DNA of 64,000 nucleotides. It comes from Chloroflexota bacterium (GTDB lineage Bacteria > Chloroflexota > UBA6077 > FW602-bin22 > JAMCVK01). Position 1 is the first letter of the stretch. Each line of letters begins with the position of its first letter. Both the position numbers and the translations under genes were made by a program. Below are positions 20,201 to 62,067 of the stretch, one piece after another. The stretch spans positions 14,132-78,131 of the forward strand of contig JAMCVK010000021.1 in NCBI GenBank assembly GCA_023475225.1. The letters run 5' to 3'. Below the pieces are notes generated by a model. That model did not search any database and was not told where the DNA came from. It saw only the letters and a list, made by a program, of their open reading frames with translations.

Positions 20201-20289
20201 GGCCCAGGCAAATGCTGATAGCCGAGACCCTTGAGCCAGTCAATGGTGGCTTCTTCTACTACGGACTCAGTGAGGACGTGCTGGATCAT
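17221..20289 (-). CDS. hsdR: Type I restriction enzyme, R subunit
   Basis: 1022 aa. N-terminal nuclease region ([15 protein letters not shown]), helicase motifs GAGKS and ADEAHRSQ, plus TGTPI and the C-terminal HsdR domain. Confidence 0.95.
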
Positions 20290-21077: not shown

Positions 21078-21079
21078 AG

Positions 21080-23487: not shown

Positions 23488-23524
23488 ACCCCACTCCTTT
23501 CACGGAAGGCGACCATCTACCATT

Positions 23525-24040
23525 TCAGCTCAACTTCACTCCCAGGGCACGAAGCATCTCAAATGTATCAATGTACCGAATGTTGAATGCCCGGCAGACA
23601 TTGGGAATCGGAATCCTCCGCCTCACGTTGGCATCAAACCGTTCAAGCGTCACGATGACGCATCCCCTCGCCTTAGCATACGCGATCAGCCAGCCATCCA
23701 CCGCGCTGGCAAACTCAGCCTTGGCCGCGTCGGTAAACTGGCTCTGACCCTGAGCCCAAGTCATGACCTGACGATAAGCTTGAACAACATCATCGTGACC
23801 CGTTGACTCAAACCACTGGTGGAAACTACCATTTGCCCATTGCTTGAGGTCATCCTTACCTCGGTCAATTTCCACCTTGATGCGGTCAATGCTCTGAACC
23901 TGGCCACTTTCCGCATGCTCAATTAATTGCTCCCAGAAGCGCGGGGCAATGTCGAAAGCGTAGTACCGACGTGCCGCCTCTATGAACACGTTAGCATCCA
24001 GGAGATACACGGGCAGAAGATACACGGGAAGGGCGGTCAC
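23525..24040 (-). CDS. DUF4411 (PIN-like) protein
   Basis: YLLDANVFIEAARRYYAFDIAPRFWEQL...WLIAYAKARGCVIVTLE fits the DUF4411/PIN-like pattern. The GTG start overlaps the ImmA-like gene stop (GTGA). The true start may be slightly downstream. Confidence 0.7.
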   Translation of the reverse strand: MTALPVYLLPVYLLDANVFIEAARRYYAFDIAPRFWEQLIEHAESGQVQSIDRIKVEIDRGKDDLKQWANGSFHQWFESTGHDDVVQAYRQVMTWAQGQSQFTDAAKAEFASAVDGWLIAYAKARGCVIVTLERFDANVRRRIPIPNVCRAFNIRYIDTFEMLRALGVKLS

Positions 24041-45058: not shown

Positions 45059-45079
45059 AACAAGCCAGCATCCAGCGCA

Positions 45080-45120
45080 GATAAGGGCAGGGACGAAAAA
45101 TTCCCTGCCCTTATCGCTTA
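45080..45120 (+). terminator. Rho-independent terminator candidate after the PepSY gene
   Basis: gataagggcaggga-cgaaaaat-tccctgcccttatc forms a 14-bp perfect stem, followed by a T-containing tail gcttatt. Confidence 0.6.
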
Positions 45121-45313
45121 TTATCCCAACCGCCGATGGCTGGTCATTCTGGTTTTGGCCCTTTGTTCTGGCCTGGCGTTTTACTTATGAAACCAGTCGA
45201 GCCTCGGTTACTTGGTGTGTCCTTGGCTGCGACTCTGCGTAGTCATGCACGTAGGTCCGTCAGCGATATAAAGCATGGCTTCAGCCCTGGGTTTAACAGT
45301 CCAGAACGTTCAA

Positions 45314-45508
45314 TCAGGCCACACAGTCAGGCTTAAATTCCTTCGGAGGACTAAAGAGGTGCTTGCAGCTCGGACAGCGGAACACACCGTGGAATGCATC
45401 ACTCAGCTTCGCCAGTATTGTAGCCTCTGCTTTTAGAGTATCCCCGCATTTGGGGGCTTGCCTTGACGGATAGGGAGCGATGCAATATAATTTCAAGTGG
45501 AGCATCAT
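45314..45508 (-). CDS. Possible small Cys-containing (zinc-ribbon-like) protein
   Basis: 64-aa ORF with C..KCGD and CPSC pairs. No strong RBS was verified. Confidence 0.25.
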   Translation of the reverse strand: MMLHLKLYCIAPYPSRQAPKCGDTLKAEATILAKLSDAFHGVFRCPSCKHLFSPPKEFKPDCVA

Positions 45509-45642
45509 TTTTCTCCTATTATCCCAAGATGGCCGACGGCGATGAAGATGCGCGTTGGCCAGTGGAAGGGGTTGTGCGTTGCATCGTCAAGTTCCTCTAC
45601 AATTATATCTAAACCCCACAATAACATCCAGGAGGTCATAGA

Positions 45643-46125
45643 ATGGAATACACGAAGATCAGCGAGATCAAGGAGTTTTCGGCCGAGAGATTCTTGAAGA
45701 AGGTGCCCCTGACTACAGAGAAGATCGTCTTTAACGCCTTTAACTTCAGGCCCCGCCAGATCCTCCCCTTGCACAAGCATCCTACTACCGACGAACTATT
45801 CTACGTGATCGAAGGTACAGGTGAGGTCACCATCGGGAATGAGCAGCGGACGATTGGTCCAACCTCGGTGATCTACGGCCCGGCTGATGTTTGGCACGGC
45901 ATCGTGAACGCCGGTGAGGACGATATGGTGGTCATCTCTGTCCAGGCACCCAAGCCAGTAGAGATGGTCTACGCTGAGAACAGCACCGTGATCTGCCCTG
46001 TCTGCAAGCAGGAGGTCATCCTCAAGGTAGATACCAAGGAAGGCGACTTGATCACCTGTCCGCGTTGTCAGGCAAGGTTGAAACTGAGCAGGGTTGACGG
46101 AAAGTGGACGGCAGTGCAGGCTTAG
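45643..46125 (+). CDS. Cupin domain protein fused to a C-terminal LysW-like zinc ribbon
   Basis: Cupin motifs LHKHPTTDELFYVIEGTG and GPADVWHGIVN. The C-terminal CPVCKQEV...GDLITCPRCQARLKL is a 4-Cys ribbon. Confidence 0.8.
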   Translation: MEYTKISEIKEFSAERFLKKVPLTTEKIVFNAFNFRPRQILPLHKHPTTDELFYVIEGTGEVTIGNEQRTIGPTSVIYGPADVWHGIVNAGEDDMVVISVQAPKPVEMVYAENSTVICPVCKQEVILKVDTKEGDLITCPRCQARLKLSRVDGKWTAVQA

Positions 46126-46236
46126 GCACCTAACGACCAGGGTGGGACGATGGTATGCCTCGCCACCGAAGCCGCCCTGTCTCTTGGGGATACACCCGAC
46201 ACCTGCCTGCATCTATATTCGAGGAGGAAACACAAC

Positions 46237-47169
46237 ATGGCCATAACATCAAGCCCTCAAGAGATCATCACCCTCTTAAATGAGGACATCACGCGGGAGC
46301 ACGAGACCATAGTTCAATATCTTCAACACGCTTACGCCATCGGTGAAGGTGCTATCGCCTGTGCAATTGAGGAGATCGCGCGGGAGGAAATGTGGCACCT
46401 GGAGTGGCTTTCTGAAAGGGTCGTGGGTCTCGGTGGTGATCCTACCCTGGAGCGGGGGGGAATAACAATAGAGAAGCAGGCCACGGCCATGCTGCGAGAC
46501 GACATCGCTCAGGAGGAAAAGGCCATCGCTCAATATCGGCGTCATATAGAAGCCATCGGCGATGAGGGAACCAAAAAGATGCTAGAGCGCATCCTCGCCG
46601 ATGAGGAATCACACCGTGACCAATTTGAGTCCATGGTCAAGGAACTGGAGGCGGCCGAAGGTGCCGCTATTGAACAAACAGCCTCGCCGGCGACGCAGCC
46701 TATCATAGGACCGCTCAACGCTGATATCAGAGACGAATATACGGCCATCCTCCAGTATCTGCACCAATCCTTCATCGCTGCGGATCCTGAGACGAGCAAC
46801 GAACTGGAGCACAGGGCAATAGAGGAGATGAAACATCTGGGTTGGCTATCTGAGAGGGTGGCTGAATTGGGTGGTGAGCCACACATCGAACGAGGAGAGA
46901 TCGATCGCTCCGTTGCTATCCCGGAGATGCTGAGGGCGAACATCAGGGCCGAACAGCAAGCGCAAGCCCAATACAGCCGTCATATTGAGGAGATCGCCGA
47001 TCCCGAGGTGAAGAGCCTTCTTTCCCGGATCAATCTCCAGGAGGCTTACCACGAGTATCAGTTCAAGGAAATGCTGGAGGAAGCGGAGAAATCAGAGACC
47101 CCCGCCCCTGCGGCGCCCAGCCCGACTGGGTTGACCGTGGGCAGTCTGCTGGGGCGAGAGCAAGAATAG
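46237..47169 (+). CDS. Tandem ferritin-like (bacterioferritin/rubrerythrin-fold) protein with C-terminal encapsulin cargo-loading peptide
   Basis: Two repeats, each with E...EEMxHLxWL...E...ExxH diiron-type ligands. A Pro/Ala linker (ETPAPAAPSPTG) is followed by LTVGSLLG at the C-terminus. ATG 46237 follows GAGGAGGA. Confidence 0.8.
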   Translation: MAITSSPQEIITLLNEDITREHETIVQYLQHAYAIGEGAIACAIEEIAREEMWHLEWLSERVVGLGGDPTLERGGITIEKQATAMLRDDIAQEEKAIAQYRRHIEAIGDEGTKKMLERILADEESHRDQFESMVKELEAAEGAAIEQTASPATQPIIGPLNADIRDEYTAILQYLHQSFIAADPETSNELEHRAIEEMKHLGWLSERVAELGGEPHIERGEIDRSVAIPEMLRANIRAEQQAQAQYSRHIEEIADPEVKSLLSRINLQEAYHEYQFKEMLEEAEKSETPAPAAPSPTGLTVGSLLGREQE

Positions 47170-47228
47170 AGAATGTCGATGATCGACCCGAAATACAAAA
47201 CCAGAATTCCTGGAAGAGAGATGAGGAG

Positions 47229-47786
47229 ATGAAAGAGATTCGCATTCACGCTAGGGCCGGGCAGGGGGCCATCACGGCTGCTATGCTCCTGGCCGTAGCC
47301 GCCTTCGAGGAGGGTAAATTTGCCTTGGCCTTTCCCCACTTCGGGGCAGAGCGGATGGGGGCCCCTATGAATGCCTTCGTCCGTCTCGATGATAAACCCA
47401 TTCGAGTGCGCAGCCAGATTCGCCAGCCAGATTGTATCCTGGTACAAGACCCTACTTTACTGCTTAGTTTTAATGTGATAGAGGGACTAAAGCCGGATGG
47501 CCTAGCCATCATCAATACAGAGAAGGAACCTGAGGCATTGAAATTGCAGACGTCCTCCAGGATAGTGACCGTACCAGCTTCAAGGATCGCTCAGGAGCTC
47601 CTGGGACGAGCGGATCGAACCAATACGGCGGTCTTGGGGGCCTTTGCCGCGGCCGGCGGAGAGATCGGACTGAAAGCGCTCAAGGCGAGCATTCGCGCCC
47701 GTTTCTCCGGTGCGGCCGCTGAAAAGAACATACAAGCGGCCGAACAGGCATATGAGTACGTGAAAGGTGCAGGAGTTAAAGTATGA
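47229..47786 (+). CDS. porG: Pyruvate:ferredoxin (2-oxoacid) oxidoreductase, gamma subunit
   Basis: IRIHARAGQGAITAAMLLAVAAFEEGKFALAFPHFGAERMGAP is the typical gamma subunit sequence. Confidence 0.9.
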   Translation: MKEIRIHARAGQGAITAAMLLAVAAFEEGKFALAFPHFGAERMGAPMNAFVRLDDKPIRVRSQIRQPDCILVQDPTLLLSFNVIEGLKPDGLAIINTEKEPEALKLQTSSRIVTVPASRIAQELLGRADRTNTAVLGAFAAAGGEIGLKALKASIRARFSGAAAEKNIQAAEQAYEYVKGAGVKV

Positions 47787-48046
47787 GGATCACTATTGGA
47801 GCAGTAGCCAAGCCCGGTTCAAGCCGGGCTAACAAGACAGGGAGCTGGCGTACGGGGACAAGACCCGCATTTCTTCAGAGTCGATGCACCGACTGTGGCC
47901 TATGTATATTGTCTTGCCCAGAGGGCATTATCTTTGGCCAGGGCAAGAACACCTACTACGCCGATTTGGATTACTGCAAAGGCTGCGGCATCTGTGCCAA
48001 CATCTGTCCAGTTAAAGATATCGTGATGGTTGCGGAGGTGAAATGA
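47783..48046 (+). CDS. porD: Pyruvate:ferredoxin oxidoreductase, delta subunit (2x[4Fe-4S])
   Basis: CTDCGLCILSCP and CKGCGICANICP motifs. 4-nt overlap with porG. Confidence 0.9.
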   Translation: MRITIGAVAKPGSSRANKTGSWRTGTRPAFLQSRCTDCGLCILSCPEGIIFGQGKNTYYADLDYCKGCGICANICPVKDIVMVAEVK

Positions 48047-48047
48047 T

Positions 48048-49229
48048 ATGGTTAAGAAGATGATTGAGGGCTCACGAGCCATAGCCGAAATGGTAGGCCT
48101 CTGTCGGCCTCAGGTCATCGCCGCTTATCCCATCACACCCCAGACGCATATCGTAGAGGAACTCTCGCAGCTGGTTGCCAATGGAGAGCTTCAGGCAGAG
48201 TACGTCAACGTGGAGAGCGAGTTCTCAGCCGCCTCGGTGATCCTGGGGGCCAGTGCCACCGGGGTACGTACCTATACGGCCACCACCTCCCAAGGGCTAT
48301 TGCTGATGATCGAGGTGCTCTACAACATCGCCGGACTGCGTCTCCCTGTTGTTCTGGGCTGTGCCAATCGCGCTATCTCTGCACCTATAAACATCTGGAA
48401 TGATCAGCAGGATTCCATCACGGCGCGCGATACCGGTTGGATTCAGCTCTACGCTGAGAGTAACCAGGAAGCGGCAGACCTTCACCTGCAGGCCTATCGC
48501 ATTGCCGAGGACCAGCGTGTACTCCTACCAGTGATGGTTTGTCTGGACGGATATGTCTTGACTCATGCCTATGAGACGGTAGATCTCCCCTCGCAAGAGG
48601 AGGTGGACGCCTTCTTACCCCCCTTCCGTCCGCTGTATCGCCTGGACCCGGCCAATCCCCTCACCTTTGGCACCCTGGCTGACCCCAGCTGCTATATGGA
48701 GACGCGCTATATTCTGCAGCGGACCACCGGGAAAGCCTTGGCGGTCATCGAGGAAACAGCCACCGCCTTCCAGAAGGCCTTTGGACGCCGCAGTGGTGGC
48801 TTGATCGACTGTTATAAGACGGAGGACGCCGCTATCATTCTCGTGGCGATGGGCTCTGTGGTCGGTACGATCAAAGAGGCTGTCGATGAGCTGCGTGCTG
48901 CTGGGCAAAAAGTGGGCGTATTAAAGGTCATTACCCATCGGCCCTTCCCTAAAGAAGCCATCTATCAGGCCTTGCACGGGGCAGAGCATGTGATTGTCCT
49001 GGAGAAGGCCATCTCCTTAGGTAACGGTGGCCCCTTGGCCACGGAGATCAAGGCTACTTTCCAGGAGCGTCCGCAGAGGGTGGCGATAAGCTCAGTCATC
49101 GCCGGCTTGGGTGGGCGCGATATAACCGTGGATAGTATCAAAAGGGCTGTGGCTATGGCTCGCGAGAGGGTCTTAGATGGTGAATTCCTTGATCTCCGAG
49201 CAGATTTGGAGATAGAAGAGGTAGCTTAA
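48048..49229 (+). CDS. porA: Pyruvate:ferredoxin oxidoreductase, alpha subunit
   Basis: GSRAIAEMVGLCRPQVIAAYPITPQT and a full-length alpha-subunit-like sequence. Confidence 0.9.
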   Translation: MVKKMIEGSRAIAEMVGLCRPQVIAAYPITPQTHIVEELSQLVANGELQAEYVNVESEFSAASVILGASATGVRTYTATTSQGLLLMIEVLYNIAGLRLPVVLGCANRAISAPINIWNDQQDSITARDTGWIQLYAESNQEAADLHLQAYRIAEDQRVLLPVMVCLDGYVLTHAYETVDLPSQEEVDAFLPPFRPLYRLDPANPLTFGTLADPSCYMETRYILQRTTGKALAVIEETATAFQKAFGRRSGGLIDCYKTEDAAIILVAMGSVVGTIKEAVDELRAAGQKVGVLKVITHRPFPKEAIYQALHGAEHVIVLEKAISLGNGGPLATEIKATFQERPQRVAISSVIAGLGGRDITVDSIKRAVAMARERVLDGEFLDLRADLEIEEVA

Positions 49230-49296
49230 GAGTGTTAAGGGTAGTTGAATGTTTTCACCTGCCCGCAAAATTTTGTATCCACTGTAGGAGTTAAAG

Positions 49297-50181
49297 ATGG
49301 AGAACGATCATCTTTTTGCGCCGGGGCACACCGCCTGCACTGGTTGTGGGCAAGCCTTAGGGGTACGGCTGGTGCTCAAGGCCGCCGGACGCAACGTCAT
49401 CACCACCGATGCCACCGGCTGCCTGGAGGTTTTCAGCTCGGCCTACCCCTATTCGGCCTGGGAGGTGCCCTGGATTCATTCCCTGTTTGAGAACTCGGCG
49501 GCTGTGGCCTCTGGGATAGAAGTGGCTTTGAAAGTGACCGGTCGTCTGGAACAGATCAAGGTTATTGCCCAAGGGGGCGATGGCGGTACGGCTGATATTG
49601 GCCTACAGGCACTCTCCGGCATGTTTGAGCGAGGACACGACGTGCTTTACGTCTGCTACGATAATGAGGCTTATATGAACACCGGGGTACAGCGCAGCGG
49701 CCTGACGCCCTACGCCGCGCGCACTACTACCAGTCCACCCGGCCGGCTCTCCTGGGGAAATGCTCGACCTAAAAAGGACCTGCCGGCCATCGCCGCCGCC
49801 CATCACATCCCCTATGTGGCTACCGCCTCGGTAGGCTATCCCTACGATCTCGATAAAAAGGTCAAGAAGGCCCTCTCCCTCGGTGGACCTAAATACATCC
49901 AGCTCCACGTGCCCTGTCCTTTGGGCTGGGCCCATGAGGCCGCATTGACCATCGAGATCGCCAAGCTGGCTGTGCAGACTGGGCTTTACCCGCTCTTTGA
50001 GATGGAGAACGGCGTGCTCAGCGCGGTCAAGAAGATCGCTAAACCGAAGCCGGTGGAGGAATACCTCAAGCTCCAGGGACGTTTTCGGCACCTCTTCCAG
50101 AAAGAGGGTGGGGCGGAGGAGATCAAGACTATTCAGGGAATCGCTGATGAGAATATCCAACGCTACAGACTCGTAGGCTGA
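49297..50181 (+). CDS. porB: Pyruvate:ferredoxin oxidoreductase, beta subunit (TPP-binding)
   Basis: [18 protein letters not shown] and [13 protein letters not shown]-binding motifs. Confidence 0.9.
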
Positions 50182-50199
50182 ACTGGCTAGGGAGTGACC

Positions 50200-51378
50200 A
50201 TGGAACCAGTCAAAATGAAGGATGGTCTCTACTGGATCGGATCCTTGGATCCGGACCTGCGCACCTTCGATATCATTTTTCGCACCGAGCGCGGCACAAC
50301 CTACAACTCTTACCTGGTAAGGGGCACAGAGAAAACAGCTGTAATCGATACCGTCAAGGCCCGTTTCCAAGAAGAATTCATATCCAAGATAAAGGTCTTG
50401 ATCGATCCCCGAGAGATCGACTACATCGTCCTGAATCATACTGAACCAGACCACTCAGGGGCCCTTCCCAAGCTTCTGGAAGCGGCAACCTCGGCCCGCC
50501 TGATCATCTCTAAGCCGGCCAATCATTTTGTGCGGAATCTCTTCAATCGTGACCTCGACCCCTGGGTAGTCGGGGATGGGGATACCGTCGATCTGGGAGG
50601 AAGGACTCTGCGGTTCATCTCTGCCCCCTTTCTACACTGGCCAGACACGATGTTCACCTATCTGGTCGAGGATAAGATCCTTTTCCCCTGCGACGCCTTC
50701 AGCTGTCACTTCTGCGACGACAGGCTCTACAACGATCTGGTAGATGATTTCAGTGCCTATTTCCGTTATTACTTCAATGGCATTATGCGGCCGTTCAAAG
50801 AGCAGGTGCAAAAGGCAGTAGAAAGGATCAGGGGACTGGAGATCGAAATCGTCGCCCCTTCCCACGGCCCCATCTTGCGCCATAATCCCTGGGAATATAT
50901 CAACCGCTATGCCGAATGGAGCCGCTTACCCAAGCCCGGGGCAAAGAAGGTCCTGATCTTCTACGTCAGCATCTATGGAAATACCAGGGCGATGGCTGAG
51001 GAGATCGCCAGGGGCGCCTCTATAGACGGGGTTGAAGTCAGGCTTCTGGATGTTACGCAGATCAAGCCGGACCAGATCCTGGATGAGGTGGAAGCGGCGG
51101 CGGCGATCGTCATTGGTTCACCTACTGTTTGTGGTGATGCCCTGCCGCTGATCTGGGAGCTTCTTTCCAGCCTGACCACCATCCGGCTGCGGGGCAAGGT
51201 TGGAGCGGCCTTCGGTTCTTACGCCTGGAGTGGGGAGGCCGTGCCAATGATCGAGGAAAGACTTAAAAGCCTGCACTTTAAGGTTATTGAACCGGGGCTC
51301 AAGGTCACCTTGGCCCCAACGGAGGATGATCGGCGTAGGGCCCGTGAGCTGGGACGGCAGATAGCCGAAAGCTTGTGA
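50200..51378 (+). CDS. fprA: Flavodiiron protein (FprA-type O2/NO reductase: metallo-beta-lactamase + flavodoxin domains)
   Basis: NHTEPDHSG diiron motif and a C-terminal flavodoxin-like domain (VLIFYVSIYGNTRAMA). ATG 50200 follows AGGGAG. The ORF track starts at GTG 50194. Confidence 0.88.
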   Translation: MEPVKMKDGLYWIGSLDPDLRTFDIIFRTERGTTYNSYLVRGTEKTAVIDTVKARFQEEFISKIKVLIDPREIDYIVLNHTEPDHSGALPKLLEAATSARLIISKPANHFVRNLFNRDLDPWVVGDGDTVDLGGRTLRFISAPFLHWPDTMFTYLVEDKILFPCDAFSCHFCDDRLYNDLVDDFSAYFRYYFNGIMRPFKEQVQKAVERIRGLEIEIVAPSHGPILRHNPWEYINRYAEWSRLPKPGAKKVLIFYVSIYGNTRAMAEEIARGASIDGVEVRLLDVTQIKPDQILDEVEAAAAIVIGSPTVCGDALPLIWELLSSLTTIRLRGKVGAAFGSYAWSGEAVPMIEERLKSLHFKVIEPGLKVTLAPTEDDRRRARELGRQIAESL

Positions 51379-51430
51379 GTTCGCTTCTTAAGGCGTGTAC
51401 ACAATACGTCTTTAATTAAGGAGGAGAGGT

Positions 51431-52267
51431 ATGGCAGATTATCTTATGCGGGATCAGGCGCCCCTTACTGCGGAACAGTGGGAGCATATCGACAAAGTAG
51501 TGACAGAAGTGGCCCAACGCACGCTGGTGGGCCGACGCTTCATCCCTATTTTCGGTCCTCTCGGCGTTGGAATACAGGTTATCCCCAAACCTGCCTTCTA
51601 CGGCGCCGAGGCCGGCGTAGAGGAATTGTCGAAGGAAAAGGAAGCCAGAGCTGCAAAGTATATCCCTCTGTACACCATCCAAAGGGATTTTGTATTACAC
51701 TGGAGGGAACTTGAGACCAGCAAGCAGCTCAATATGCCTTTAGAGCTGGGTCCGGCGGCTGCGTCTGCCGCCTTCTGTGCTCAAGCGGAGGATAACCTCA
51801 TTTTCAATGGCAACCGTGGGCTTGGCTGCGAAGGACTGCTTAACGCCGAGGGGAGAAACTTGCTTCCCCTCAGTGACTGGACAGCGACAGGTAATGCCTT
51901 TCGGGATGTGGTGGCGGCCACAGAGAAGCTGCTATCGGCTGGCTTTTTTGGCCCTTACGCTGCGGTGTTGAGTCCACAACTATACGCCGCCATACATAAG
52001 GTCTATGAGAATACCAGTGTCCTGGAGATCGAACAGGTGCGCAAAATCATCACCGATGGCGTTTACTATTCACCATCCTTGCTGGCGGATAGTGGACTGA
52101 TTGTAGCGACTGGTTTGCAGAATATGGACCTGGTCATTGCCCAAGATTTAGTTACCGCTTTCCTGGAGACCAGTAACATGGATCACCGCTTCCGGGTCCT
52201 GGAAATCCTGGCCCTGCGCATCAAGCGACCAGGCGCCATTTGTGTGTTGGAGGGTGGGCCAGCCTAA
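51431..52267 (+). CDS. Family 1 encapsulin nanocompartment shell protein (HK97 fold, linocin M18-like)
   Basis: MADYLMRDQAPLTAEQWEHIDKVVTEVAQRTLVGRRFIPIFGPLG parallels the T. maritima encapsulin N-terminus. 278 aa. Strong RBS AAGGAGGAGAGG. Confidence 0.88.
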   Translation: MADYLMRDQAPLTAEQWEHIDKVVTEVAQRTLVGRRFIPIFGPLGVGIQVIPKPAFYGAEAGVEELSKEKEARAAKYIPLYTIQRDFVLHWRELETSKQLNMPLELGPAAASAAFCAQAEDNLIFNGNRGLGCEGLLNAEGRNLLPLSDWTATGNAFRDVVAATEKLLSAGFFGPYAAVLSPQLYAAIHKVYENTSVLEIEQVRKIITDGVYYSPSLLADSGLIVATGLQNMDLVIAQDLVTAFLETSNMDHRFRVLEILALRIKRPGAICVLEGGPA

Positions 52268-52410: not shown

Positions 52411-53484
52411 ATGCGAAAAACCACAGCTTATCAACAAACAATTTTCCCAGACCTAACTGCCGAGTTTCCTTCCACCCGCTATCAGGGTAGCAAGGCGAAA
52501 CTGGCGGACTGGATTGGGGAGCAAATCGCGGATTTGGGTTTTATGACCTGTTTGGACGCCTTTGGCGGTAGTGGTAGCGTCGCTTATCGTTTAAAGCAGG
52601 CAGGCAAGCGGGTTACATATAATGACTTGCTCCGCTTCAACTACTACACTGGACTGGCACTGATCGAGAACAGCCGAACCCGGCTCAGCCCTGAGGAGGT
52701 AAGCTGGCTTCTGCAGAGACACCCAGAGATCACGTATCCGTATTTTGTCCGTGACAATTTCCATGACATCTACTTCACTGATGAAGAGAATGCCTGGATT
52801 GACCAAGCGATTACCAACACTCGCCAACTCACCGATCCCTACAAGTTCGCGCTGGCGTTTTTCGCTCTGTGTCAAGCCTGCATTATCAAGCGACCCTACA
52901 ACCTGTTTCATCGAAAAAACCTCTACATACGTTTCGCCGAAGTGGTGCGCTCGTTTGGAAACAAGACCACCTGGGATAGGCCCTTCGACGAGTGGTTTCG
53001 CATTTTCATCGGAGAAGCGAATCAAGCCGTCTTTGACAACAGCCAGATGAACCGTGCCTTGAACCTTGACGCTGCTGATGTGCCTGGCGAATATGACCTG
53101 GTATATGTAGATACGCCTTACATCTCCAACCGTGGCGTAGCTGTCGACTACTTGTGCTTTTATCACTTCTTAGAAGGATTGACGATGTACGATGAGTGGG
53201 GCAAGCATATAGATCACAGATCAAAGCATCGCCGCTTAATGCCACGACCGAGCGAATGGACTGACAAGAACCGAATTCATGCCGCCTTTGATCGCTTATT
53301 CCAACGATACCAGAAAAGCATCATTGTGGTTTCTTATCGAAGCGATGGTATCCCCTCCGAATCGGAGCTCGCGTCCCTTCTCAAGCAATATAAGCGCAAT
53401 GTACGCGTCGAGCATTTTGGCCAGTATAAATACGTGTTATCTACCAATTCCGAGTCTGGAGAAATTCTCCTGATTGGGACATAG
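52411..53484 (+). CDS. Dam-like (D12 class) N6-adenine DNA methyltransferase, M.EcoRV-like
   Basis: Motif I DAFGGSGSVAY and motif IV VYVDTPY. Located directly upstream of an EcoRV-like endonuclease. Confidence 0.85.
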   Translation: MRKTTAYQQTIFPDLTAEFPSTRYQGSKAKLADWIGEQIADLGFMTCLDAFGGSGSVAYRLKQAGKRVTYNDLLRFNYYTGLALIENSRTRLSPEEVSWLLQRHPEITYPYFVRDNFHDIYFTDEENAWIDQAITNTRQLTDPYKFALAFFALCQACIIKRPYNLFHRKNLYIRFAEVVRSFGNKTTWDRPFDEWFRIFIGEANQAVFDNSQMNRALNLDAADVPGEYDLVYVDTPYISNRGVAVDYLCFYHFLEGLTMYDEWGKHIDHRSKHRRLMPRPSEWTDKNRIHAAFDRLFQRYQKSIIVVSYRSDGIPSESELASLLKQYKRNVRVEHFGQYKYVLSTNSESGEILLIGT

Positions 53485-53505
53485 ATTCTACCGGGTGCAG
53501 CAAAG

Positions 53506-54294
53506 ATGACCATGGACGATTTCAGGGAGAGCCTGTTAGCACACTTTGACATATTCAGACGCACCCTTGCCACAGACACTGGCGACTGGGTTGTCAAAGG
53601 ATTCATTGATGCGTACCGAAACATCTATACCATCTCGGTAGATACAAAAGTCGTCTCCAAGATCATCGAGCTGATGCTTTTTCCGGTCATCTCACGGTTT
53701 GCTGTAGAGCACAACTACAGAATGGTGCTCAGTGAGCATCAAAATCATTATCCCGACATCAGTTTCATAGCGCCAGATGAGACAAAGATCGCCCTTGACC
53801 TTAAAAGCACGTATCGAACGGATAGAGAAACGGTAAACGGCTTTACGCTGGGCGCCTTCACCGGGTACTTTCGGCAGCGCAAATCCACCAAGAATACCAC
53901 CTTCCCGTATGAACATTACGCTGCGCACTTTGTTCTGGGCATCATCTATAGCCGTAGCGACGAGGCTGTTGATGAACGCCGTGTTTATACGCTGGATGAT
54001 CTGCGGAACATCATATCGGTGGTCAAGGATTTCACCTTTCTGTGTCAAGAGAAATGGCGAATTGCCAGCGATCGACCTGGAAGCGGAAATACTAAGAACA
54101 TCGGTTCATTCAAAGATATCCAAGCCTTGGTTGAAGGCAATGGCCCGTTTGCCCCTTATGGGCAAGAAGTGTTCGACGATTACTGGATGAACTTCATGAC
54201 GGAAGACATGGCGCGGGCCATCGACTCGGATGTCCATTATCGGAATCTTGAAGAATATTGGGAGTGGCGTGATCGTGTTGCTCGGAGAAGATAG
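53506..54294 (+). CDS. Type II restriction endonuclease, EcoRV family
   Basis: Colinear with EcoRV as recalled. DTKVVSKIIELMLFPVI (EcoRV DTKVLSTIFELFSRPII), HQNHYPDISF (QQNHYPDFTL), KIALDLKSTY (KIAIDIKTTY, the PD...DxK site), GSGNTKNIGS (GSGNTTNIGS). Confidence 0.88.
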   Translation: MTMDDFRESLLAHFDIFRRTLATDTGDWVVKGFIDAYRNIYTISVDTKVVSKIIELMLFPVISRFAVEHNYRMVLSEHQNHYPDISFIAPDETKIALDLKSTYRTDRETVNGFTLGAFTGYFRQRKSTKNTTFPYEHYAAHFVLGIIYSRSDEAVDERRVYTLDDLRNIISVVKDFTFLCQEKWRIASDRPGSGNTKNIGSFKDIQALVEGNGPFAPYGQEVFDDYWMNFMTEDMARAIDSDVHYRNLEEYWEWRDRVARRR

Positions 54295-54450
54295 AACGTG
54301 CCACCGCATCGTCTAACAGCGGCTGAAGGGCTTCGGGGCTATGTACTTTCGCCCAAATCGCCTTCTGCAACTTGTTTTAGTCGCAAGACGCTAGGCATCG
54401 TTGTGCCACTTTAGACAGTCAGCACATAGCAAGGTGTGAGGGGAAGCTGA

Positions 54451-54966
54451 ATGGACAAGAGCAAGCGTAGAATGATTGAAGGGTGGATTGACAAAGCTTC
54501 GACTCAACTGCGAGCAGCTAAAGAGCATCTGAAGTCTTATACTCGGTATTCAGAATCCATACAAGCGTCCCAGGAATGCATCGAGCTTTCGGTCAAATCA
54601 ACCCTCTCCCTGCTGGATGTTGAATACCCTCCAAGCCATGGCTGGAATAGGGAGCAATTCACTGGAATCGCAAAGCAGATCCAAGAGAGACGGCTCCTGG
54701 ATAGACTCGCCGCGCAGAACTTGGGCTATATCCGCTTGCCGAGACTCTTGTTTCTGGCGAACTTCTGGGCCCAGTTCTACTTGCCAGCCAAGTACGGCTT
54801 CGAGGTTGAGTATCTGGCGCCAGCTCAGGATTTGTTTGACAAAAATGAAGCTGACCTTGCTGTGCAACATGCTGAGGAATGTTACAGGGTTGCATCACAA
54901 CTCAGGAACCTTAGCGGAGACGGACTGGCCGGCATCGTTTCGCAACCTGAGGACTTGGCTCACTAG
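54451..54966 (+). CDS. HEPN-like four-helix protein (orphan, no adjacent nucleotidyltransferase)
   Basis: IEGWIDKASTQLRAAKEHLKSYTRYSESIQASQECIELSVKSTLSLL resembles the first two HEPN helices. No canonical C-terminal Rx4-6H motif was identified. Confidence 0.5.
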   Translation: MDKSKRRMIEGWIDKASTQLRAAKEHLKSYTRYSESIQASQECIELSVKSTLSLLDVEYPPSHGWNREQFTGIAKQIQERRLLDRLAAQNLGYIRLPRLLFLANFWAQFYLPAKYGFEVEYLAPAQDLFDKNEADLAVQHAEECYRVASQLRNLSGDGLAGIVSQPEDLAH

Positions 54967-55189: not shown

Positions 55190-55693
55190 ATGAGGAAGAT
55201 GACCGAGGAGAATCTGAAGGCGGCTTTTGCCGGTGAGAGTCAGGCTCATATGAAGTATCTCATCTTCGCCGATCGCGCTGAGAAAGAGGGCCATGCCAAT
55301 GTGGCCCGTCTCTTCCGAGCCATCGCCTACGCCGAACAGGTGCATGCCACTAACCATTTCAAGGAGCTGGGGCAGCTGGGAGCTACGCCGGCTAACTTAG
55401 GGGCGGCCATAGCGGGGGAGACCTTTGAAGTGGAAGAGATGTACCCGGCCTATAACGAGGTGGCCAGGTTGCAGGAGGAGAGGGGAGCCCAAAGGAGTAC
55501 CCACTATGCCCTTGAGGCGGAGAAGATCCACGCCCGCCTCTATACCGAGGCCAGACAGGCCGTGGAAGGCGGTAGGGATATCCAGATAGGCGATGTCTTC
55601 ATCTGTGACGTATGCGGGCATACAGTAGTGGGTGAGCCTCCGGAGAAGTGCCCGATCTGTGGGGCCCCACGCAACCGCTACAAGAAGTTCTGA
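55190..55693 (+). CDS. rbr: Rubrerythrin
   Basis: LKAAFAGESQAHMKY, the EQVHATNH diiron four-helix bundle and the C-terminal rubredoxin-like CDVCGH...CPICGAP. ATG 55190 is preferred over ORF start 55103. Confidence 0.9.
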   Translation: MRKMTEENLKAAFAGESQAHMKYLIFADRAEKEGHANVARLFRAIAYAEQVHATNHFKELGQLGATPANLGAAIAGETFEVEEMYPAYNEVARLQEERGAQRSTHYALEAEKIHARLYTEARQAVEGGRDIQIGDVFICDVCGHTVVGEPPEKCPICGAPRNRYKKF

Positions 55694-55724: not shown

Positions 55725-56954
55725 ATGACTCTGGGCCAAAGCGTGAAGGCCAAAAAGGATAATCTCCTGGCCCTGGTCACCGATATGGGGCCTGGCTTCC
55801 TTGTTGCTGTCGGTTTCATCGACCCAGGTAATATCGCCACCAATGTGGTGGCCGGGGCAAACTACGGCTATCAACTCCTTTGGGTAGTGGTGCTCAGCAC
55901 CCTGATGGTCATCCTGATGCAGGAGATGGCTGCCAGACTCGGTGTTGCCAGCCACCGTTGTCTCTCCGAAGCCATCGCCACCCAATTCGGTCGGGGATGG
56001 TCACTCCTGCTAGCACCATTGGTGCTCATCGGCAGCGTGGCCACGGTGATGGCCGAGCTACTGGGCGCTGCGCTTGGCTTGCATTTGCTGTTTGGTATAC
56101 CGCTATGGTTGGGTGGAGCACTCACCGCCTTGGCCGCCGCTATCATCATTTGGCGCGGACAATACCATCACGTAGAAGACATCATCGTTGGCTTCGTCGG
56201 GATCATCGGTCTCTGCTACCTGATCGAGCTGTTCATCGCCACCCCTGACTGGGGCCAGGTGCTGCGCTCCAGCTTGATTCCCCACCTCAGCACCAATAAT
56301 ACCCTCCTAGCCGTCGGCATTCTGGGCGCTATCCTCATGCCCTCTAACCTTTACCTGCACTCCTCCATCGTGCAAGAGAAGGATTGGTCAGAGGCAAAAC
56401 TCCACCACGAATTCATCGATACTACTGTGAGTATGATTGTTGGTGGATTTATAAATGCGGCTATTATCATAGTCGCTGCGGCCATCTTCTTCAGCCAAGG
56501 ACATGCGGTCCGAGACATCGCCGATGCAGCGATCACCCTGACCCCTTTGGCCGGCGAGCTCGCTCACTACCTTTTCGCCCTCGCCCTCTTCTTTGCTGGC
56601 TTTGCCTCCTCTATCACCGGTGCTATGGCCGGCTCCTACGGCATCGGCGGTTTCGTCTTTGGCACTCAACACCACAGTGATAAGCCGTTCCGTCTCGGCT
56701 TCATCGCCATTCTAGCGATGGCCTTAATCATAGTTTGCCTTGGTTTAGATCCCCTTGGGGTCTTGGTAATCAGCCAGGCCGTCTTAGGCGTACTGCTGCC
56801 CTTCACCGTGATTCCTCTCTTGCTCCTGATGCGACGACGCAGTTTGGTAGGGAGCTATATCAATCGGGCCGCCTTCCACTATCTAGGTTGGGGAACAGCC
56901 ATCGCCGCCGTCGCTATGGACGTGATCCTCCTCATGAGCTTGCTGAGTCCCTAG
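55725..56954 (+). CDS. mntH: NRAMP family divalent metal (Mn2+/Fe2+) transporter
   Basis: GPGFLVAVGFIDPGNIATN signature, MPSNLYLHSS motif, 11-12 TM. The start is uncertain (ATG 55725 chosen; the ORF begins at 55632 and overlaps rbr). Confidence 0.88.
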   Translation: MTLGQSVKAKKDNLLALVTDMGPGFLVAVGFIDPGNIATNVVAGANYGYQLLWVVVLSTLMVILMQEMAARLGVASHRCLSEAIATQFGRGWSLLLAPLVLIGSVATVMAELLGAALGLHLLFGIPLWLGGALTALAAAIIIWRGQYHHVEDIIVGFVGIIGLCYLIELFIATPDWGQVLRSSLIPHLSTNNTLLAVGILGAILMPSNLYLHSSIVQEKDWSEAKLHHEFIDTTVSMIVGGFINAAIIIVAAAIFFSQGHAVRDIADAAITLTPLAGELAHYLFALALFFAGFASSITGAMAGSYGIGGFVFGTQHHSDKPFRLGFIAILAMALIIVCLGLDPLGVLVISQAVLGVLLPFTVIPLLLLMRRRSLVGSYINRAAFHYLGWGTAIAAVAMDVILLMSLLSP

Positions 56955-57014: not shown

Positions 57015-58805
57015 ATGGCTCAAGGAGAACAGCCCCAGCCGGAGACCTATCCGGCCGGAAAACAGGAGGTCGAACTATACATTCGTACCTACAATACCCT
57101 CCTGCGTAGCTCCGGCGAGATTAAGATGAAGGCTTTGCTGCAAGCGCACCTGAATATCGATTCTAGCTTGCATCCAAACGCCCGAAATTCTGCCCCTGAT
57201 CTGACGGCCTTCATTTATTGTACTCTTCGCCTTCCCCCTTGCATCATGCAAACGAGACGGGTAGTCCTCGGGCAATCAGCCGAGGTCTTCAGCGAGCAGG
57301 GATTTGGTGATGTGGAGAGATGGCCAGCTGTAAAGGCGGCCGGTCGCCGTCGTAAGTGGTTTTTTGATGGACAACACACGCTGGCCGTATATATCGCCAG
57401 TGCTTCGGATGTTGACGACCTTATCCCCATACTGGTGGCCTTCCAGATCGAATGGAATAAGTTTTATCGTTTGCTCAATGCCGACTCCACTACCTTACAG
57501 ATGATCATCGAGGGGATGAAGATGTTGCCCACCTCCCCACGCTATGAAGAGACAGTTAAGGTGATTCGTGAAAGACTACTGCTGAGTGCCGACGACTGGG
57601 TACGCCTCGAAGCAGTGTGGGGGGAGAACTTCTGGCTGAATCTCCTCCTGATGGGCAAGATGGAAAGGAACTTCGCGATACGTATGCTCGGCGGTTCTCA
57701 CGTTGGCTATGCTAAAGCGACGCGAAAATGGTGGGCCGCCATCGGTGACTGCTTGACCGACCTACCTCTTGCTGAGAGACCTGTCTATTTCGTCTCCAGT
57801 AATACGCATAGCCTGGTCAATCCTCTTTCTGGCTTCGCCCTGCGTCGCAAGGAGGAACTCGAGCAGTTCGTGAAGATGACAGGCGATGCGGAGTTGCTAC
57901 CTGAGTATGAGAAGCTACAGCGTGGGGAGGTCAAGAGCAGTCGAGAGAATTTCCTGTACTACACGGCCAGGAAATACAGCCTCGATGGCCCGCGGGCCAA
58001 ACGAATGGAAGAAGAACGGCGCCGGGAGGAGGAAGAAAGAGGCATCTACTACGTTCGCAGCACCGCTGGACTCGATATAGATGCTCAAATAATAGACCTG
58101 GCCAGGCTTATCCCCCGAGATTTCGATCCCCGTTTACAGATGGATAATTTGGACTCACTGAAACGGAGCAACGCCATCGTTCTCAACATCGAATATCCCT
58201 TAGGATTAGCTGCCTATCACATCTTGCGCCAGCTGGCCGAGCAGGTCGGCCGCTTCAAGGGCATCTATATCCTCGGCAAAGCGGCCACCTTGAATGGCAG
58301 CATTGGTGACGTGATGATCCCTAATGTAGTGTTTGACGAGCATTCGGGAAATACCTATTGGCTTGACAACTGCTTTACGGCCCAGGATATAAGCCCCTTC
58401 TTGATCTACGGCTCAGTTTTAGACAATCAGAAAACGGTCTCTGTAAAGGGGACCTTCCTGCAAAATCGCCAATACCTGGAACTCTATTACCGCGAGAGTT
58501 ATACCGTGGTGGAGATGGAGGCCGGGCCGTACCTTAATGCCCTTTATGAAAGCATCTATCCGACCCGTTACCCGGTTGGGGAGAACATTAACTTCACTAA
58601 GTTGCCCTTTGTCATCGGTCTGTTACACTACGCCTCAGACACCCCCTACACGCGGGGCAAGAATCTGGGGGCAAAGCGGCAGTCATATTATGGCATGGAC
58701 TCTGCCTATGCTACCTCCATTGCCATCTTACGTCATATCCTGAGCAAAGAGGTTGCCGACGAACAACTCCTTACAACGGAACAGAGGCCATCTCTGGTGC
58801 TTTAG
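57015..58805 (+). CDS. Large protein with C-terminal nucleoside phosphorylase/nucleosidase-fold (PNP_UDP-like) domain and unknown ~380-aa N-terminal region
   Basis: The C-terminal NIEYPLGLAAYHILRQLAEQVGRFKGIYILGKAATLNGSIGDVMIPNVVFDEH...VVEMEAGPYLNA parallels the phosphorylase-fold core of AMP nucleosidase (IGHCGGL..GDYVL...AIDMESA). Confidence 0.55.
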   Translation: MAQGEQPQPETYPAGKQEVELYIRTYNTLLRSSGEIKMKALLQAHLNIDSSLHPNARNSAPDLTAFIYCTLRLPPCIMQTRRVVLGQSAEVFSEQGFGDVERWPAVKAAGRRRKWFFDGQHTLAVYIASASDVDDLIPILVAFQIEWNKFYRLLNADSTTLQMIIEGMKMLPTSPRYEETVKVIRERLLLSADDWVRLEAVWGENFWLNLLLMGKMERNFAIRMLGGSHVGYAKATRKWWAAIGDCLTDLPLAERPVYFVSSNTHSLVNPLSGFALRRKEELEQFVKMTGDAELLPEYEKLQRGEVKSSRENFLYYTARKYSLDGPRAKRMEEERRREEEERGIYYVRSTAGLDIDAQIIDLARLIPRDFDPRLQMDNLDSLKRSNAIVLNIEYPLGLAAYHILRQLAEQVGRFKGIYILGKAATLNGSIGDVMIPNVVFDEHSGNTYWLDNCFTAQDISPFLIYGSVLDNQKTVSVKGTFLQNRQYLELYYRESYTVVEMEAGPYLNALYESIYPTRYPVGENINFTKLPFVIGLLHYASDTPYTRGKNLGAKRQSYYGMDSAYATSIAILRHILSKEVADEQLLTTEQRPSLVL

Positions 58806-59772: not shown

Positions 59773-62049
59773 TCAGAGCAACGGCTCCATAGTCAGAGCC
59801 GGATGCCCCTTCTCCTCCAGGAAGGGTAGCAGCTCCTCAAGTGTGGTGGCCACGCGTTCATCGGCGATCTTCTCGATGAGGTCTGGTTCCCCTTCTCGTT
59901 CAGCTGCGGCCTGCAGCTCCTCGGCCATGCTCTCCTTCAGGAAGGAGGAGAGCCAAACAATCCTTTTGAGCCCCCCATCGGCGGAGATGAATTTCTTGCT
60001 AATGAGGTAATACTTGCCCACCCCCATTACCCCAGGCGTCTGCAATCCCCCACCAGCCATACCGGCCAGGGTAGAAAAGGTCATGCCCGCCGGCGTCATG
60101 CTGGGGTCCTCGCGGGAGACGACCATTATCCCGTTGGCCTCGGGGATAAGCATGGCGATACACTCAAAACAGCCACAGGCGGTCATAGGATTTTCCATGA
60201 TCGAATAGAGGGCCACCTCCGGCACCGCACCATGAGAGTTCTGTTGAACGAACTCGTTCACCCGATCGAAGTAGCCTTTCACTGGGTCCAGGCAGCGACC
60301 CTTGGGGATGGGTTGGTTCGGGCCAGTAGAGTTTATCTCATAGGAGGCCCGGCAGTCCAACCAGTTATAAGCGCCACAGAGCCCCAGCCGCTCCGGGGTG
60401 ATTACGCAGACGTGGTTCGGAGCGAAACTCTGACAGAGTGTACAGGAGTAGAAGGTATCTACCGACTCGTCTACCATATCGGCCAGGCGCACGTTGCGCT
60501 CCTGATAGGCCGCACGTGCCCTCTCCAGCCAGTGCTCAATTTGGGTCTCATCTGTGTAAAGCTTGACCTGCACCTTGTCTACGATGGCCCCGAAATCAGC
60601 GTGGAAGCGGGCGTGGAGGATCTTGCCCAGATGCTCGAGCTGGAAACCCTTCTCCGCTGCGGCCTTGCTGATGCGAATCCAGGTGATGTCACGTTGCCCG
60701 ATATGCTGCACGCCTGAGGCACCGTTAATGAAGTGGTGGATTTGCCGCTCCAGGACCGGCTCGAAATCCCTCTGCATCCGACGGCCGGCCACCTCAACCA
60801 TGATGCCCAGATGCACATTGGCCCCTATCTTGTATTCATCGATGGCGGGTCCTATCACCTCGACCTTACCATCGTCTACCTCATCTAGATCGCGCATCAC
60901 CAGGTACTCGAAACAGCGTCCCTCCTTGCCGCCGAACTCGACGCGCATATCGTCCCGCCTCACGCGCTCGCCCTCGAAGGCTGAACCGTAGGGCACTGGG
61001 ATGGGCATCTCCGTGATACGCACTTTGACGCCACGTACCTCGATGCATTTCTGGATGAGTCGCTCAGCGCGCTCCAGGTCATCGCTACCCTCGAGTTCAT
61101 CAAAGGGCATAGAGACAACGTGCTCGTAGGTAGTGATGCCCCGGGGCAGGATCTGCGGGATGACTGTATCAGCGATGGTAGGGAAACCATAGCTGATGGC
61201 CCCGGCCGCGGTAGCGTATTTCAGATCATCTACCTCCCCCAAAGCCAGAACGAAGGCGAAGACACGGTATTTATTGTAAAGTAGCACCTCTCGAGCCTGA
61301 CCACCTTTAAGACCACCAAAGGTCAGGGCTGAGCGGGTGGCGAATCCCAAGGCGTAAATGGCTGATATAGTGTTGGTGCCAAAGGGGACGGTATAGGTGT
61401 CGTAACCCAGCTCCACCCCCTCCTCCATGAGTTGTTGGATGATGCTACGACCGCCGGCGCTGCCAGAGAGAAAGACCAGGATGTTGCGTCGCTGTAGCTC
61501 GCGCACAATCTTTACCGCCACCTCGTTGGACTTGGCTGCCCCAACGATGGCCGCGAAACCGGGCATTCGACCGTCCACCAGCTGAATGCCCCAGGCACGT
61601 AGCTGGATGTCGTCAATTGGCCCATTCAGACGTCCGTCGCCCTTGATCATATCGGGGCTGGTGAAGCTGGCCCCAACAGTGTAGCCACCCCAATCCATCT
61701 TCTCCGGTTGTTCACCATAGACGAAACGGATTCCCATGATCGCCTCTTCGGCCAGGAGGGTCGCTACCCCGCAATCAAGGGTCTCACCCAGATAGGGTAG
61801 CCACAGGCTAGCAGCTGGAACGGGATGGAGAAGATGCTTAGCATGCTCGAGCACGGGGACGAGGTCTCCCAATCGCTCAACCTTAAGGCCACTGAACCCA
61901 TAGATTACGGGAAGATAATAGGCCGTATTGGGGAAAGCAACAGCCGCTTCCGGCCCACGCTCGGCGATAGCCTTTTGTAGTAGTTCCTCTGCCTCCTTGA
62001 CGATGTGATTAGCACCACGAATAGCCGCCGTAGCGATGTAACGAGACAT
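59773..62049 (-). CDS. acsB: Acetyl-CoA synthase (CODH/ACS alpha subunit, A-cluster)
   Basis: 758 aa. A-cluster Cys motifs SCTLCQSFAPNHVCV...LCGA and ACGCFEC. N-terminus AAIRGANHIV...FPNTAYYLPVIY is typical of AcsB. RBS GGAAGGAGGA. Confidence 0.93.
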   Translation of the reverse strand: MSRYIATAAIRGANHIVKEAEELLQKAIAERGPEAAVAFPNTAYYLPVIYGFSGLKVERLGDLVPVLEHAKHLLHPVPAASLWLPYLGETLDCGVATLLAEEAIMGIRFVYGEQPEKMDWGGYTVGASFTSPDMIKGDGRLNGPIDDIQLRAWGIQLVDGRMPGFAAIVGAAKSNEVAVKIVRELQRRNILVFLSGSAGGRSIIQQLMEEGVELGYDTYTVPFGTNTISAIYALGFATRSALTFGGLKGGQAREVLLYNKYRVFAFVLALGEVDDLKYATAAGAISYGFPTIADTVIPQILPRGITTYEHVVSMPFDELEGSDDLERAERLIQKCIEVRGVKVRITEMPIPVPYGSAFEGERVRRDDMRVEFGGKEGRCFEYLVMRDLDEVDDGKVEVIGPAIDEYKIGANVHLGIMVEVAGRRMQRDFEPVLERQIHHFINGASGVQHIGQRDITWIRISKAAAEKGFQLEHLGKILHARFHADFGAIVDKVQVKLYTDETQIEHWLERARAAYQERNVRLADMVDESVDTFYSCTLCQSFAPNHVCVITPERLGLCGAYNWLDCRASYEINSTGPNQPIPKGRCLDPVKGYFDRVNEFVQQNSHGAVPEVALYSIMENPMTACGCFECIAMLIPEANGIMVVSREDPSMTPAGMTFSTLAGMAGGGLQTPGVMGVGKYYLISKKFISADGGLKRIVWLSSFLKESMAEELQAAAEREGEPDLIEKIADERVATTLEELLPFLEEKGHPALTMEPLL

Positions 62050-62067
62050 CCCTGTTTCCTCCTTCCT

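Follow-up and report, generated by a model that had tools for sequence, protein, structure and literature searches.

Which protein fills the encapsulin shell encoded in this stretch of Chloroflexota DNA, and why do the genes of a pyruvate:ferredoxin oxidoreductase (PFOR) lie between the shell gene and that of its candidate cargo? The window (the whole stretch that was analysed, 64,000 nucleotides of contig JAMCVK010000021.1) carries an open reading frame (ORF) for a tandem ferritin-like protein at positions 46237-47169 and one for an encapsulin shell at 51431-52267, and the ORF map places porGDAB and a gene for a flavodiiron protein (FDP) in between, all on the + strand. From the comparisons below, the locus probably encodes a standard family 1 encapsulin that would take up a double ferritin-like protein (DFLP) and serve to oxidise and sequester iron, as part of an oxidative-stress and iron island. 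A lineage-specific rearrangement would have put porGDAB and the FDP gene between cargo and shell genes, with PFOR and FDP remaining in the cytosol.

A family 1 shell and a DFLP with a targeting peptide

The 278-aa product of the shell gene (51431-52267, + strand) matched the equivalog model NF041155, 'family 1 encapsulin shell', with 276 bits against a cut-off of 100 over positions 1-261 of 261, and PF04454 with 237 bits. The initial annotation had named this ORF a family 1 encapsulin, a reading that would have failed if encapsulin profiles did not match it; both did. The gene is preceded by a strong Shine-Dalgarno sequence (AGGAGG). The best solved relative of the protein is Myxococcus xanthus EncA (4PT2/7S20; E 1e-87, residues 1-276), the next best is the T=4 shell of Quasibacillus thermotolerans (6NJ8), and the T=1 shells of Thermotoga maritima and mycobacteria match at E 1e-15 or weaker. 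Reading the protein as a phage capsid was ruled out by the equivalog score, the similarity to EncA and the absence of phage genes.

By its sequence, the 310-aa protein at 46237-47169 (+ strand) is a DFLP, and is predicted to be the core cargo of the shell. DFLPs are duplicated bacterioferritin-like proteins that form homodimers and no 24-mer cages, bind heme via a Met pair that is 100% conserved among them, and have ferroxidase activity (Anuchina et al. 2025, 10.1101/2025.09.13.676036); dimerisation, heme binding and ferroxidase activity were shown there for TmDFLP of Thermocrinis minervae, the crystal structure of which is 9VIW, and for CaDFLP, from a core-cargo operon of Caldanaerovirga acetigignens. 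In the window, translation most likely starts at the ATG at 46237; an in-frame upstream ATG at 46150 is an unlikely start because a GGAGG Shine-Dalgarno sequence lies 8 nt 5′ of the 46237 ATG and public gene calls start there. Pfam Ferritin was found in two stretches of the protein (3.8e-31), and NCBIfam returned solely sub-threshold matches to encapsulated-ferritin, bacterioferritin and Mn-catalase models. The N-terminal domain (approximately residues 1-140, nt 46237-46656, + strand) carries the predicted diiron ligands E21/E51/H54/E93/E123/H126 and, after an inter-domain linker at residues 141-150, the C-terminal domain (residues 151-287, nt 46687-47097, + strand) carries E167/E197/H200/E239/E269/H272; all of these ligands are invariant in the homologue alignment. 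Each domain has a bacterioferritin-type heme Met (M52 and M198), and the two halves are 45% identical to one another.

The sequence match to TmDFLP (9VIW) extends over residues 6-282 with an E value of 8.3e-47. An AlphaFold2 model built with 23 homologues had a predicted local distance difference test score (pLDDT) of 90.8 and consisted of eight long helices in two bundles, with the inter-domain linker and the tail from residue 288 at low confidence. Each bundle superposes on bacterioferritins with target-normalised template modelling scores of 0.75-0.89 (Foldseek against the PDB). The matches listed in that search comprise single-domain bacterioferritins and a mini-bacterioferritin only; 9VIW is not among them, and the structural match to the DFLP class therefore rests on the sequence search. 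The two complete four-helix diiron units described in the initial annotation, each with a full E/ExxH/E/ExxH site, were borne out by the profile search and structure prediction that it had proposed. It set the tandem cargo apart from the usual short type, but the kind is not new: an earlier survey listed it as 'Bfr' cargo (Andreas & Giessen 2021, PMC8346489), and Anuchina et al. characterised it as the DFLP family. The survey recorded 'Bfr' cargos from Firmicutes, Aquificae, Chloroflexi and Cyanobacteria and described them as pairs of four-helix bundles whose C-terminal targeting peptides are conserved; the window's protein is of the same cargo class and phylum.

The C-terminus of the DFLP consists of a Pro/Ala-rich flexible linker followed by LTVGSLLGREQE, and the tail reads ...ETPAPAAPSPTG-LTVGSL-LGREQE. 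Linker and putative targeting peptide together occupy 47098-47166 (+ strand; pLDDT 52-61), with LTVGSL at residues 299-304 (nt 47131-47148) and a 6-residue tail, LGREQE, behind it, in agreement with the consensus [LF]-x-[VI]-G-x-[LI] after a flexible linker that characterises family 1 targeting peptides. LTVGSL is identical to the peptide of M. xanthus EncB, EncC and EncD that is seen bound in EncA structures, as quoted in a passage of Anuchina et al. A six-frame scan of the whole window found the TVGSL-type motif in a single real ORF, that of the DFLP, and C-terminal and anywhere-in-ORF six-frame motif scans found no further cargo in the window; the initial annotation had likewise singled out the 310-aa protein as the only one with an encapsulin-type loading peptide. 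The bare motif is expected approximately twice by chance in the 128,000 six-frame positions, and what gives it weight is its C-terminal place behind a linker and the fact that homologues conserve it, not its occurrence as such.

In order to relate the peptide to the presence of a shell gene, the best 120 DFLP homologues were compared, and 80 DFLP loci were taken from species-representative genomes with the window's proteins mapped onto them. The homologues fall into 42 longer proteins (median 317 aa) ending in a linker and [LFYP][TS][VI]G[SN]L, and 78 shorter ones (median 281 aa) that end directly after the last helix; 68 of the 80 loci have a DFLP without a targeting peptide. Among the loci with 1.2 kb or more of sequence downstream, an encapsulin gene lay directly downstream of the peptide-bearing DFLP in 11 of 11 loci, in ten of them at 23-72 bp and in one at 533 bp with no gene in between, and no encapsulin gene was present within the flank of any peptide-less DFLP (0/57). 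The closest DFLP relatives with usable context (P0002, P0005 and P0085) and the DFLPs accompanying the two closest encapsulins on long contigs (P0133 and P0131) are all encoded directly upstream of the shell gene. This perfect co-occurrence, together with the exact EncA-bound peptide and an EncA-like shell, makes the assignment of the 310-aa DFLP as predicted cargo of the window's encapsulin well supported, as the initial annotation had proposed. Of 157 published DFLPs, 56 have an encapsulin-targeting motif at their end (10.1101/2025.09.13.676036), and the presence of the peptide predicting an adjacent encapsulin in 11 of 11 loci and its absence predicting none in 57 of 57 strengthens the case for peptide-bearing DFLPs as true cargo.

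The window's system resembles the published DFLP-encapsulin systems in having two bacterioferritin-like four-helix domains per chain, EEHEEH ligands and the Met pair, a C-terminal [LF]TVGSL after a linker, and a family 1 EncA-like shell. TmDFLP differs in its C-terminal domain, where it has ESHEEH and the window's DFLP retains all of EEHEEH. Neither TmDFLP nor any database relative exceeds 49% identity to the window's protein, which is a divergent Chloroflexi addition to this recently defined class. The iron-storage system of M. xanthus (EncA with EncB, EncC and EncD; T=3/T=1) supplies the closest solved shell and the identical LTVGSL motif, and likewise uses ferritin-like cargo for iron mineralisation; EncB and EncC, however, are short two-helix encapsulated ferritins that form decamers, whereas the window's cargo is a covalently duplicated four-helix protein for which a dimer is expected.

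A 4.3-kb gap between cargo and shell genes

The stop of the cargo gene (47169) and the start of the shell gene (51431) are 4,261 bp apart, with five genes in between. In family 1 systems the core cargo gene typically, although not by strict definition, lies directly upstream of the shell gene, an arrangement from which this locus departs. The same gene order was found in an NCBI contig of a Chloroflexi metagenome-assembled genome (MAG; GCA_023382375.1) and in two Logan assemblies made independently from separate runs, and a misassembly is ruled out as the origin of the split because the order is identical in three independent assemblies. A gap of this kind was the sole case among approximately 17 peptide-bearing contexts compared. 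The split layout is thus real and unique among these contexts, and the unusual distance remarked on in the initial annotation stands against relatives in which the two genes lie a few dozen base pairs apart, or once 533 bp. The GC content is flat over 46-52 kb (0.544-0.568), and a recent horizontal insertion of por and FDP genes was rejected for want of any GC anomaly. No repeats were obvious by eye at the two junctions, on which no repeat search was run.

Three layouts have been published for DFLPs, with adjacent core cargo, distant secondary cargo or reversed gene order (10.1101/2025.09.13.676036), and the window fits none of them: cargo and shell genes share one strand and one probable operon, yet are 4.3 kb and five unrelated genes apart. 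The survey that described 'Bfr' cargo took the bacterioferritins to form cages, as a shell within a shell, and worked by operon adjacency (PMC8346489). The cargo class and its targeting to encapsulins are published, on computational grounds in 2021 and with experiments in 2025; the split layout is described in neither work, and would be missed or misfiled by adjacency-based cargo finding. No new mechanism emerges from the locus, nor does it settle any question that had been open. Distance between cargo and shell genes has a parallel in M. xanthus, in which some cargo genes are said, in work by McHugh et al. from 2014, not to be adjacent to the shell gene.

The first four intervening genes, porG (47229-47786; 224.4 bits against a cut-off of 225), porD (47783-48046; TIGR02179, 90.5 against 60), porA (48048-49229; 536 bits against 550) and porB (49297-50181; 414 bits against the equivalog cut-off of 405), all on the + strand, encode a putative four-subunit, archaeal-type PFOR, and PorD and PorG pass pyruvate/2-ketoisovalerate subfamily models. 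The fifth (50194-51378, + strand) encodes a class A FDP, a predicted O2/NO reductase with a metallo-beta-lactamase-like diiron domain (ODP, 4.6e-28) and a flavodoxin domain (Flavodoxin_1, 7.3e-17) and without a rubredoxin domain; against the flavorubredoxin equivalog model it scores 338, under the cut-off of 635. Inspection of the C-termini and the six-frame scan found no targeting motif in the por or FDP products, in line with the initial annotation.

The row begins upstream of the DFLP gene with a gene for a 160-aa cupin protein with a C-terminal LysW-like Zn-ribbon (45643-46125, + strand; Cupin_2 1.6e-17, Zn_ribbon_LysW 1.3e-5). Upstream of it lies a promoter-like site, TTGACG-17-TATAAT (45463-45491, + strand), found as a consensus match with 11 of 12 positions and a candidate start of the whole co-oriented row. 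Gaps along the row range from a 4-bp overlap to 111 bp, those around the five intervening genes being no longer than 67 bp, and no credible + strand terminator was found in 45643-52267. A terminator-like hairpin with a perfect 14-bp stem (45080-45115) closes the preceding PepSY gene, and no other inverted repeat was found in 45060-45660. Between 44 and 56 kb no Rfam family reached its gathering threshold, and an upstream regulatory RNA or operator was accordingly discarded as a candidate. Since the genes are co-oriented, tightly spaced and not interrupted by a convincing terminator, it is plausible from these signals that the cupin-to-encapsulin row forms one transcription unit.

Weighing the readings of the locus

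In the probable reading, that of a standard DFLP-loaded encapsulin rearranged in one lineage, the shell protein would self-assemble into an EncA-like icosahedral shell, probably of T=3 or larger, inside which the DFLP, expected to be a heme-bridged homodimer, would be tethered by its C-terminal LTVGSL on the Pro/Ala linker. Fe2+ would enter via the shell pores and be oxidised at the diiron sites of both domains, and the ferric mineral would be held in the lumen, thereby removing Fenton-active iron. In the ancestral layout the shell gene would have followed the DFLP gene directly, porGDAB and the FDP gene having come between the two in this lineage. The row from cupin-Zn-ribbon to encapsulin gene, probably one transcription unit, would be part of an oxidative-stress and iron island with the FDP, rubrerythrin and Nramp genes, and PFOR and FDP would be cytosolic passengers in the operon, not cargo. 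That FDP genes are habitual neighbours of DFLP genes is apparent from many Anaerolineae loci, in which FDP homologues (55-63% identity) and rubrerythrin homologues (57-73%) are encoded within a few kb of the DFLP. In locus L014 the row comprises FDP, NADH:rubredoxin oxidoreductase (NROR), rubrerythrin, DJ-1/PfpI, superoxide reductase (SOR), DFLP and FMN reductase genes; in L007 it comprises ferritin, FDP, ArsP-type exporter, DFLP, encapsulin, rubrerythrin-like protein, NROR and rubrerythrin genes; and in L041 and L061 an FDP gene lies just downstream of the shell gene. This recurrence places DFLPs in the classic oxidative-stress island of anaerobes and makes an FDP gene beside a shell gene ordinary. 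Several points weigh against this account. Assembly, loading, ferroxidase activity and T number are attributed to the window's system by analogy, and the closest DFLP homologue is at the 49% identity given above. The split removes the tight coupling of cargo and shell genes found in every relative, and the cargo-to-shell stoichiometry or the expression of the pair could consequently differ. Locus L177, in which a related por operon lies among oxidative-stress genes, also leaves some likelihood to a functional tie of this por clade to such genes.

In an alternative that gives concrete form to the idea of the initial annotation, co-transcription of PFOR, FDP and the DFLP-encapsulin would reflect a joint function, PFOR passing low-potential electrons from pyruvate oxidation via PorD or ferredoxin to the FDP for O2/NO reduction and the compartment capturing Fe2+ released from oxidatively damaged Fe-S clusters of PFOR. 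We consider it unlikely. The genes do share one orientation, follow a single strong promoter-like site and have short gaps between them, and the FDP gene has no adjacent NROR or rubredoxin partner gene, unlike its relatives, so that the protein would need another electron donor. The L177 por operon, 66% identical to the window's, lies amid genes for rubrerythrin, SOR, FDP, NifS/NifU and ferritin, and in locus L132 an FDP gene is followed by a more distant porGDAB-type operon, in an order unlike that of the window. Against this, none of the other DFLP-encapsulin loci compared has a por gene between or beside its cargo and shell genes, only weak PorA-like matches (27-30% identity) occurring several kb from three peptide-less DFLP genes, and L132 was the one case of por next to FDP among 80 metagenome loci centred on FDP relatives, about the level of chance. 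Close PorA relatives with context numbered three, and two of them (L176 and L178) lack the oxidative-stress neighbours of L177. With no enrichment in either set, a conserved por-FDP block was rejected. The por operon may equally be a pyruvate synthase linked to the Wood-Ljungdahl pathway, the CODH/ACS genes of which lie 8 kb away. The suggestion of the initial annotation that the compartment may protect an O2-sensitive PFOR finds no support in the same counts; the genes that recur beside those of DFLPs encode FDP, rubrerythrin, NROR and SOR, but not PFOR. A more specific version, in which the split is adaptive and a single transcript couples electron supply from PFOR to the partner-less FDP with quarantine of PFOR cluster iron by the DFLP-encapsulin, strikes us as quite improbable; if true, it would make the locus a self-contained 'pyruvate-powered O2 scavenging plus iron quarantine' module in a Wood-Ljungdahl anaerobe.

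Should PFOR or FDP instead be non-canonical cargo lacking a recognisable peptide, housed in an O2-shielding compartment, their position between cargo and shell genes would be the sole point in favour. The CoA, pyruvate and ferredoxin that PFOR exchanges would have to pass through small pores in the shell, which is implausible. All five proteins lack a [LF]-x-[VI]-G-x-[LI]-type motif at either terminus, as well as any disordered Pro/Ala linker, no relative conserves the arrangement, and in every characterised family 1 system loading depends on a peptide (PMC8346489), all of which leaves this alternative highly improbable. A different doubt concerns the DFLP: since the rearrangement it could have worked chiefly as an unencapsulated ferroxidase in the cytosol, as its peptide-less paralogues do, with the shell empty, differently loaded or decaying. 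The majority of DFLPs, by the counts of loci (68/80) and proteins (78/120), carry no peptide and function without a shell, and adjacency was lost in this lineage alone. Yet neither gene is disrupted or shortened, LTVGSL is retained as a perfect consensus along with its linker, the shell gene keeps its strong Shine-Dalgarno sequence, the split is fixed in three samples, and DFLP secondary cargos encoded far from their shell are already accepted (10.1101/2025.09.13.676036); such an uncoupling is very unlikely. Least of all do we expect a manganese catalase in place of a ferroxidase cargo, which would be in keeping with the NCBI name of the protein, 'manganese catalase family protein', and with partial Pfam Mn_catalase matches. 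The latter cover approximately 60 residues (profile positions 143-201 of 284), the NCBIfam model ManCatBAC (NF052557) gave 46.5 bits against a cut-off of 350, and no full-length match to a Mn-catalase profile was found; the full-length match is to 9VIW, the fold match is to bacterioferritins, and the ligand set and Met pair are bacterioferritin-like. Relatives of the protein are named 'bacterioferritin' by JGI. Such public names are misleading for DFLPs and would hide these cargos from keyword searches.

Flanking genes and related loci

The oxidative-stress islands of anaerobes combine FDP, NROR, rubrerythrin and SOR genes. The window shares with them, and with many Anaerolineae and Dehalococcoidia loci, FDP and rubrerythrin genes on the flanks of the DFLP gene; its immediate row differs in having no NROR, rubredoxin or SOR gene and, instead, a PFOR operon and an encapsulin shell gene. 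The rubrerythrin, which has a C-terminal rubredoxin-like domain, is encoded at 55190-55693 (+ strand; Rubrerythrin 4.3e-24, RUBY_RBDX 7.3e-10) and is directly followed by a gene for a predicted Nramp-family divalent metal (Mn2+/Fe2+) transporter at 55743-56954 (+ strand; PF01566), identified by mapping L093 19507-20718 to the window. Directly after the Nramp gene and on the same strand, 57015-58805 encodes a 596-aa protein matching DUF6909 from end to end (760 bits).

The encapsulin gene is separated from the rubrerythrin and Nramp genes by a block at 52411-54966 that encodes a D12-class (Dam-like) methyltransferase, an EcoRV-family endonuclease and a HEPN protein, with a GC content of 0.487 compared to approximately 0.55 around it. 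This restriction-modification or defence block looks like a separate, more recent insertion that further fragmented the oxidative-stress island. A second restriction-modification system in the window, of type I, lies at 17221-26850 on the − strand, with HsdR (1022 aa) and HsdM (539 aa) and ORFs between them.

The Zn-ribbon of the cupin protein that heads the row shares 47% identity over 49 aa with a stand-alone Zn-ribbon protein of 70 aa at L081 9053-9265, in an unrelated MAG, where it heads an operon of Zn-ribbon, rubrerythrin, rubredoxin, DFLP and encapsulin genes. It is possible that the Zn-ribbon is a recurring small metal-binding partner at these two loci. As a homologue was found in L081 alone among the 92 loci searched, the Zn-ribbon was rejected as a conserved partner and no general association is claimed.

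Genes of the Wood-Ljungdahl pathway lie approximately 8 kb downstream of the por operon, at 59773-63963 on the − strand, where acetyl-CoA synthase beta (CdhC/ACS, 758 aa) and the catalytic subunit of a Ni-containing carbon monoxide dehydrogenase (Ni-CODH; Prismane family, 631 aa) are encoded. In view of this CODH/ACS pair, por may sit here simply as a pyruvate synthase. The anaerobic host assumed in the initial annotation agrees with the presence of FDP, rubrerythrin, PFOR and CODH/ACS genes in the window, which fits a strictly anaerobic, possibly acetogenic Chloroflexi with PFOR as pyruvate synthase.

L177 (70-9979) was the sole other case seen of this por clade among oxidative-stress genes. 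Its row comprises an NROR fragment, rubrerythrin, FMN reductase, an SOR N-terminal domain, porG/A/B, NifS, NifU, TusA, FDP, a rubredoxin-like protein, rubrerythrin and ferritin. The PorB of L177 is fused to a cytochrome b5 domain, and in L178 a cytochrome b5 protein is encoded by a separate gene after porB.

Genes for peptide-less DFLPs of Anaerolineae follow FDP and rubrerythrin genes at a distance of a few kb in L014 (5668-11446), L009, L011-L013, L024, L028, L031, L045 and L096, the intervening genes having been annotated in L014 alone. The pattern suggests that DFLPs without a shell act as cytosolic members of the anaerobic oxidative-stress response.

Another type of cargo may be encoded in three Chloroflexota MAGs (L090 7280-7870, L089 3874-4464 and L091 7280-7870) that carry a family 1 encapsulin, P0145, with a shell protein 58% identical to that of the window. 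Here the encapsulin gene is preceded not by a DFLP gene but by two ORFs of approximately 196 aa. Neither had a Pfam match, and the directly upstream one, the sole one searched against the PDB, had no sequence match there. The product of this directly upstream ORF begins MVPAELQPGAEPQWTVGSLFGQPQGG, an N-terminal TVGSL-type motif followed by a Pro/Ala-rich linker, and is a candidate cargo of an undescribed family in which the targeting peptide is N-terminal.

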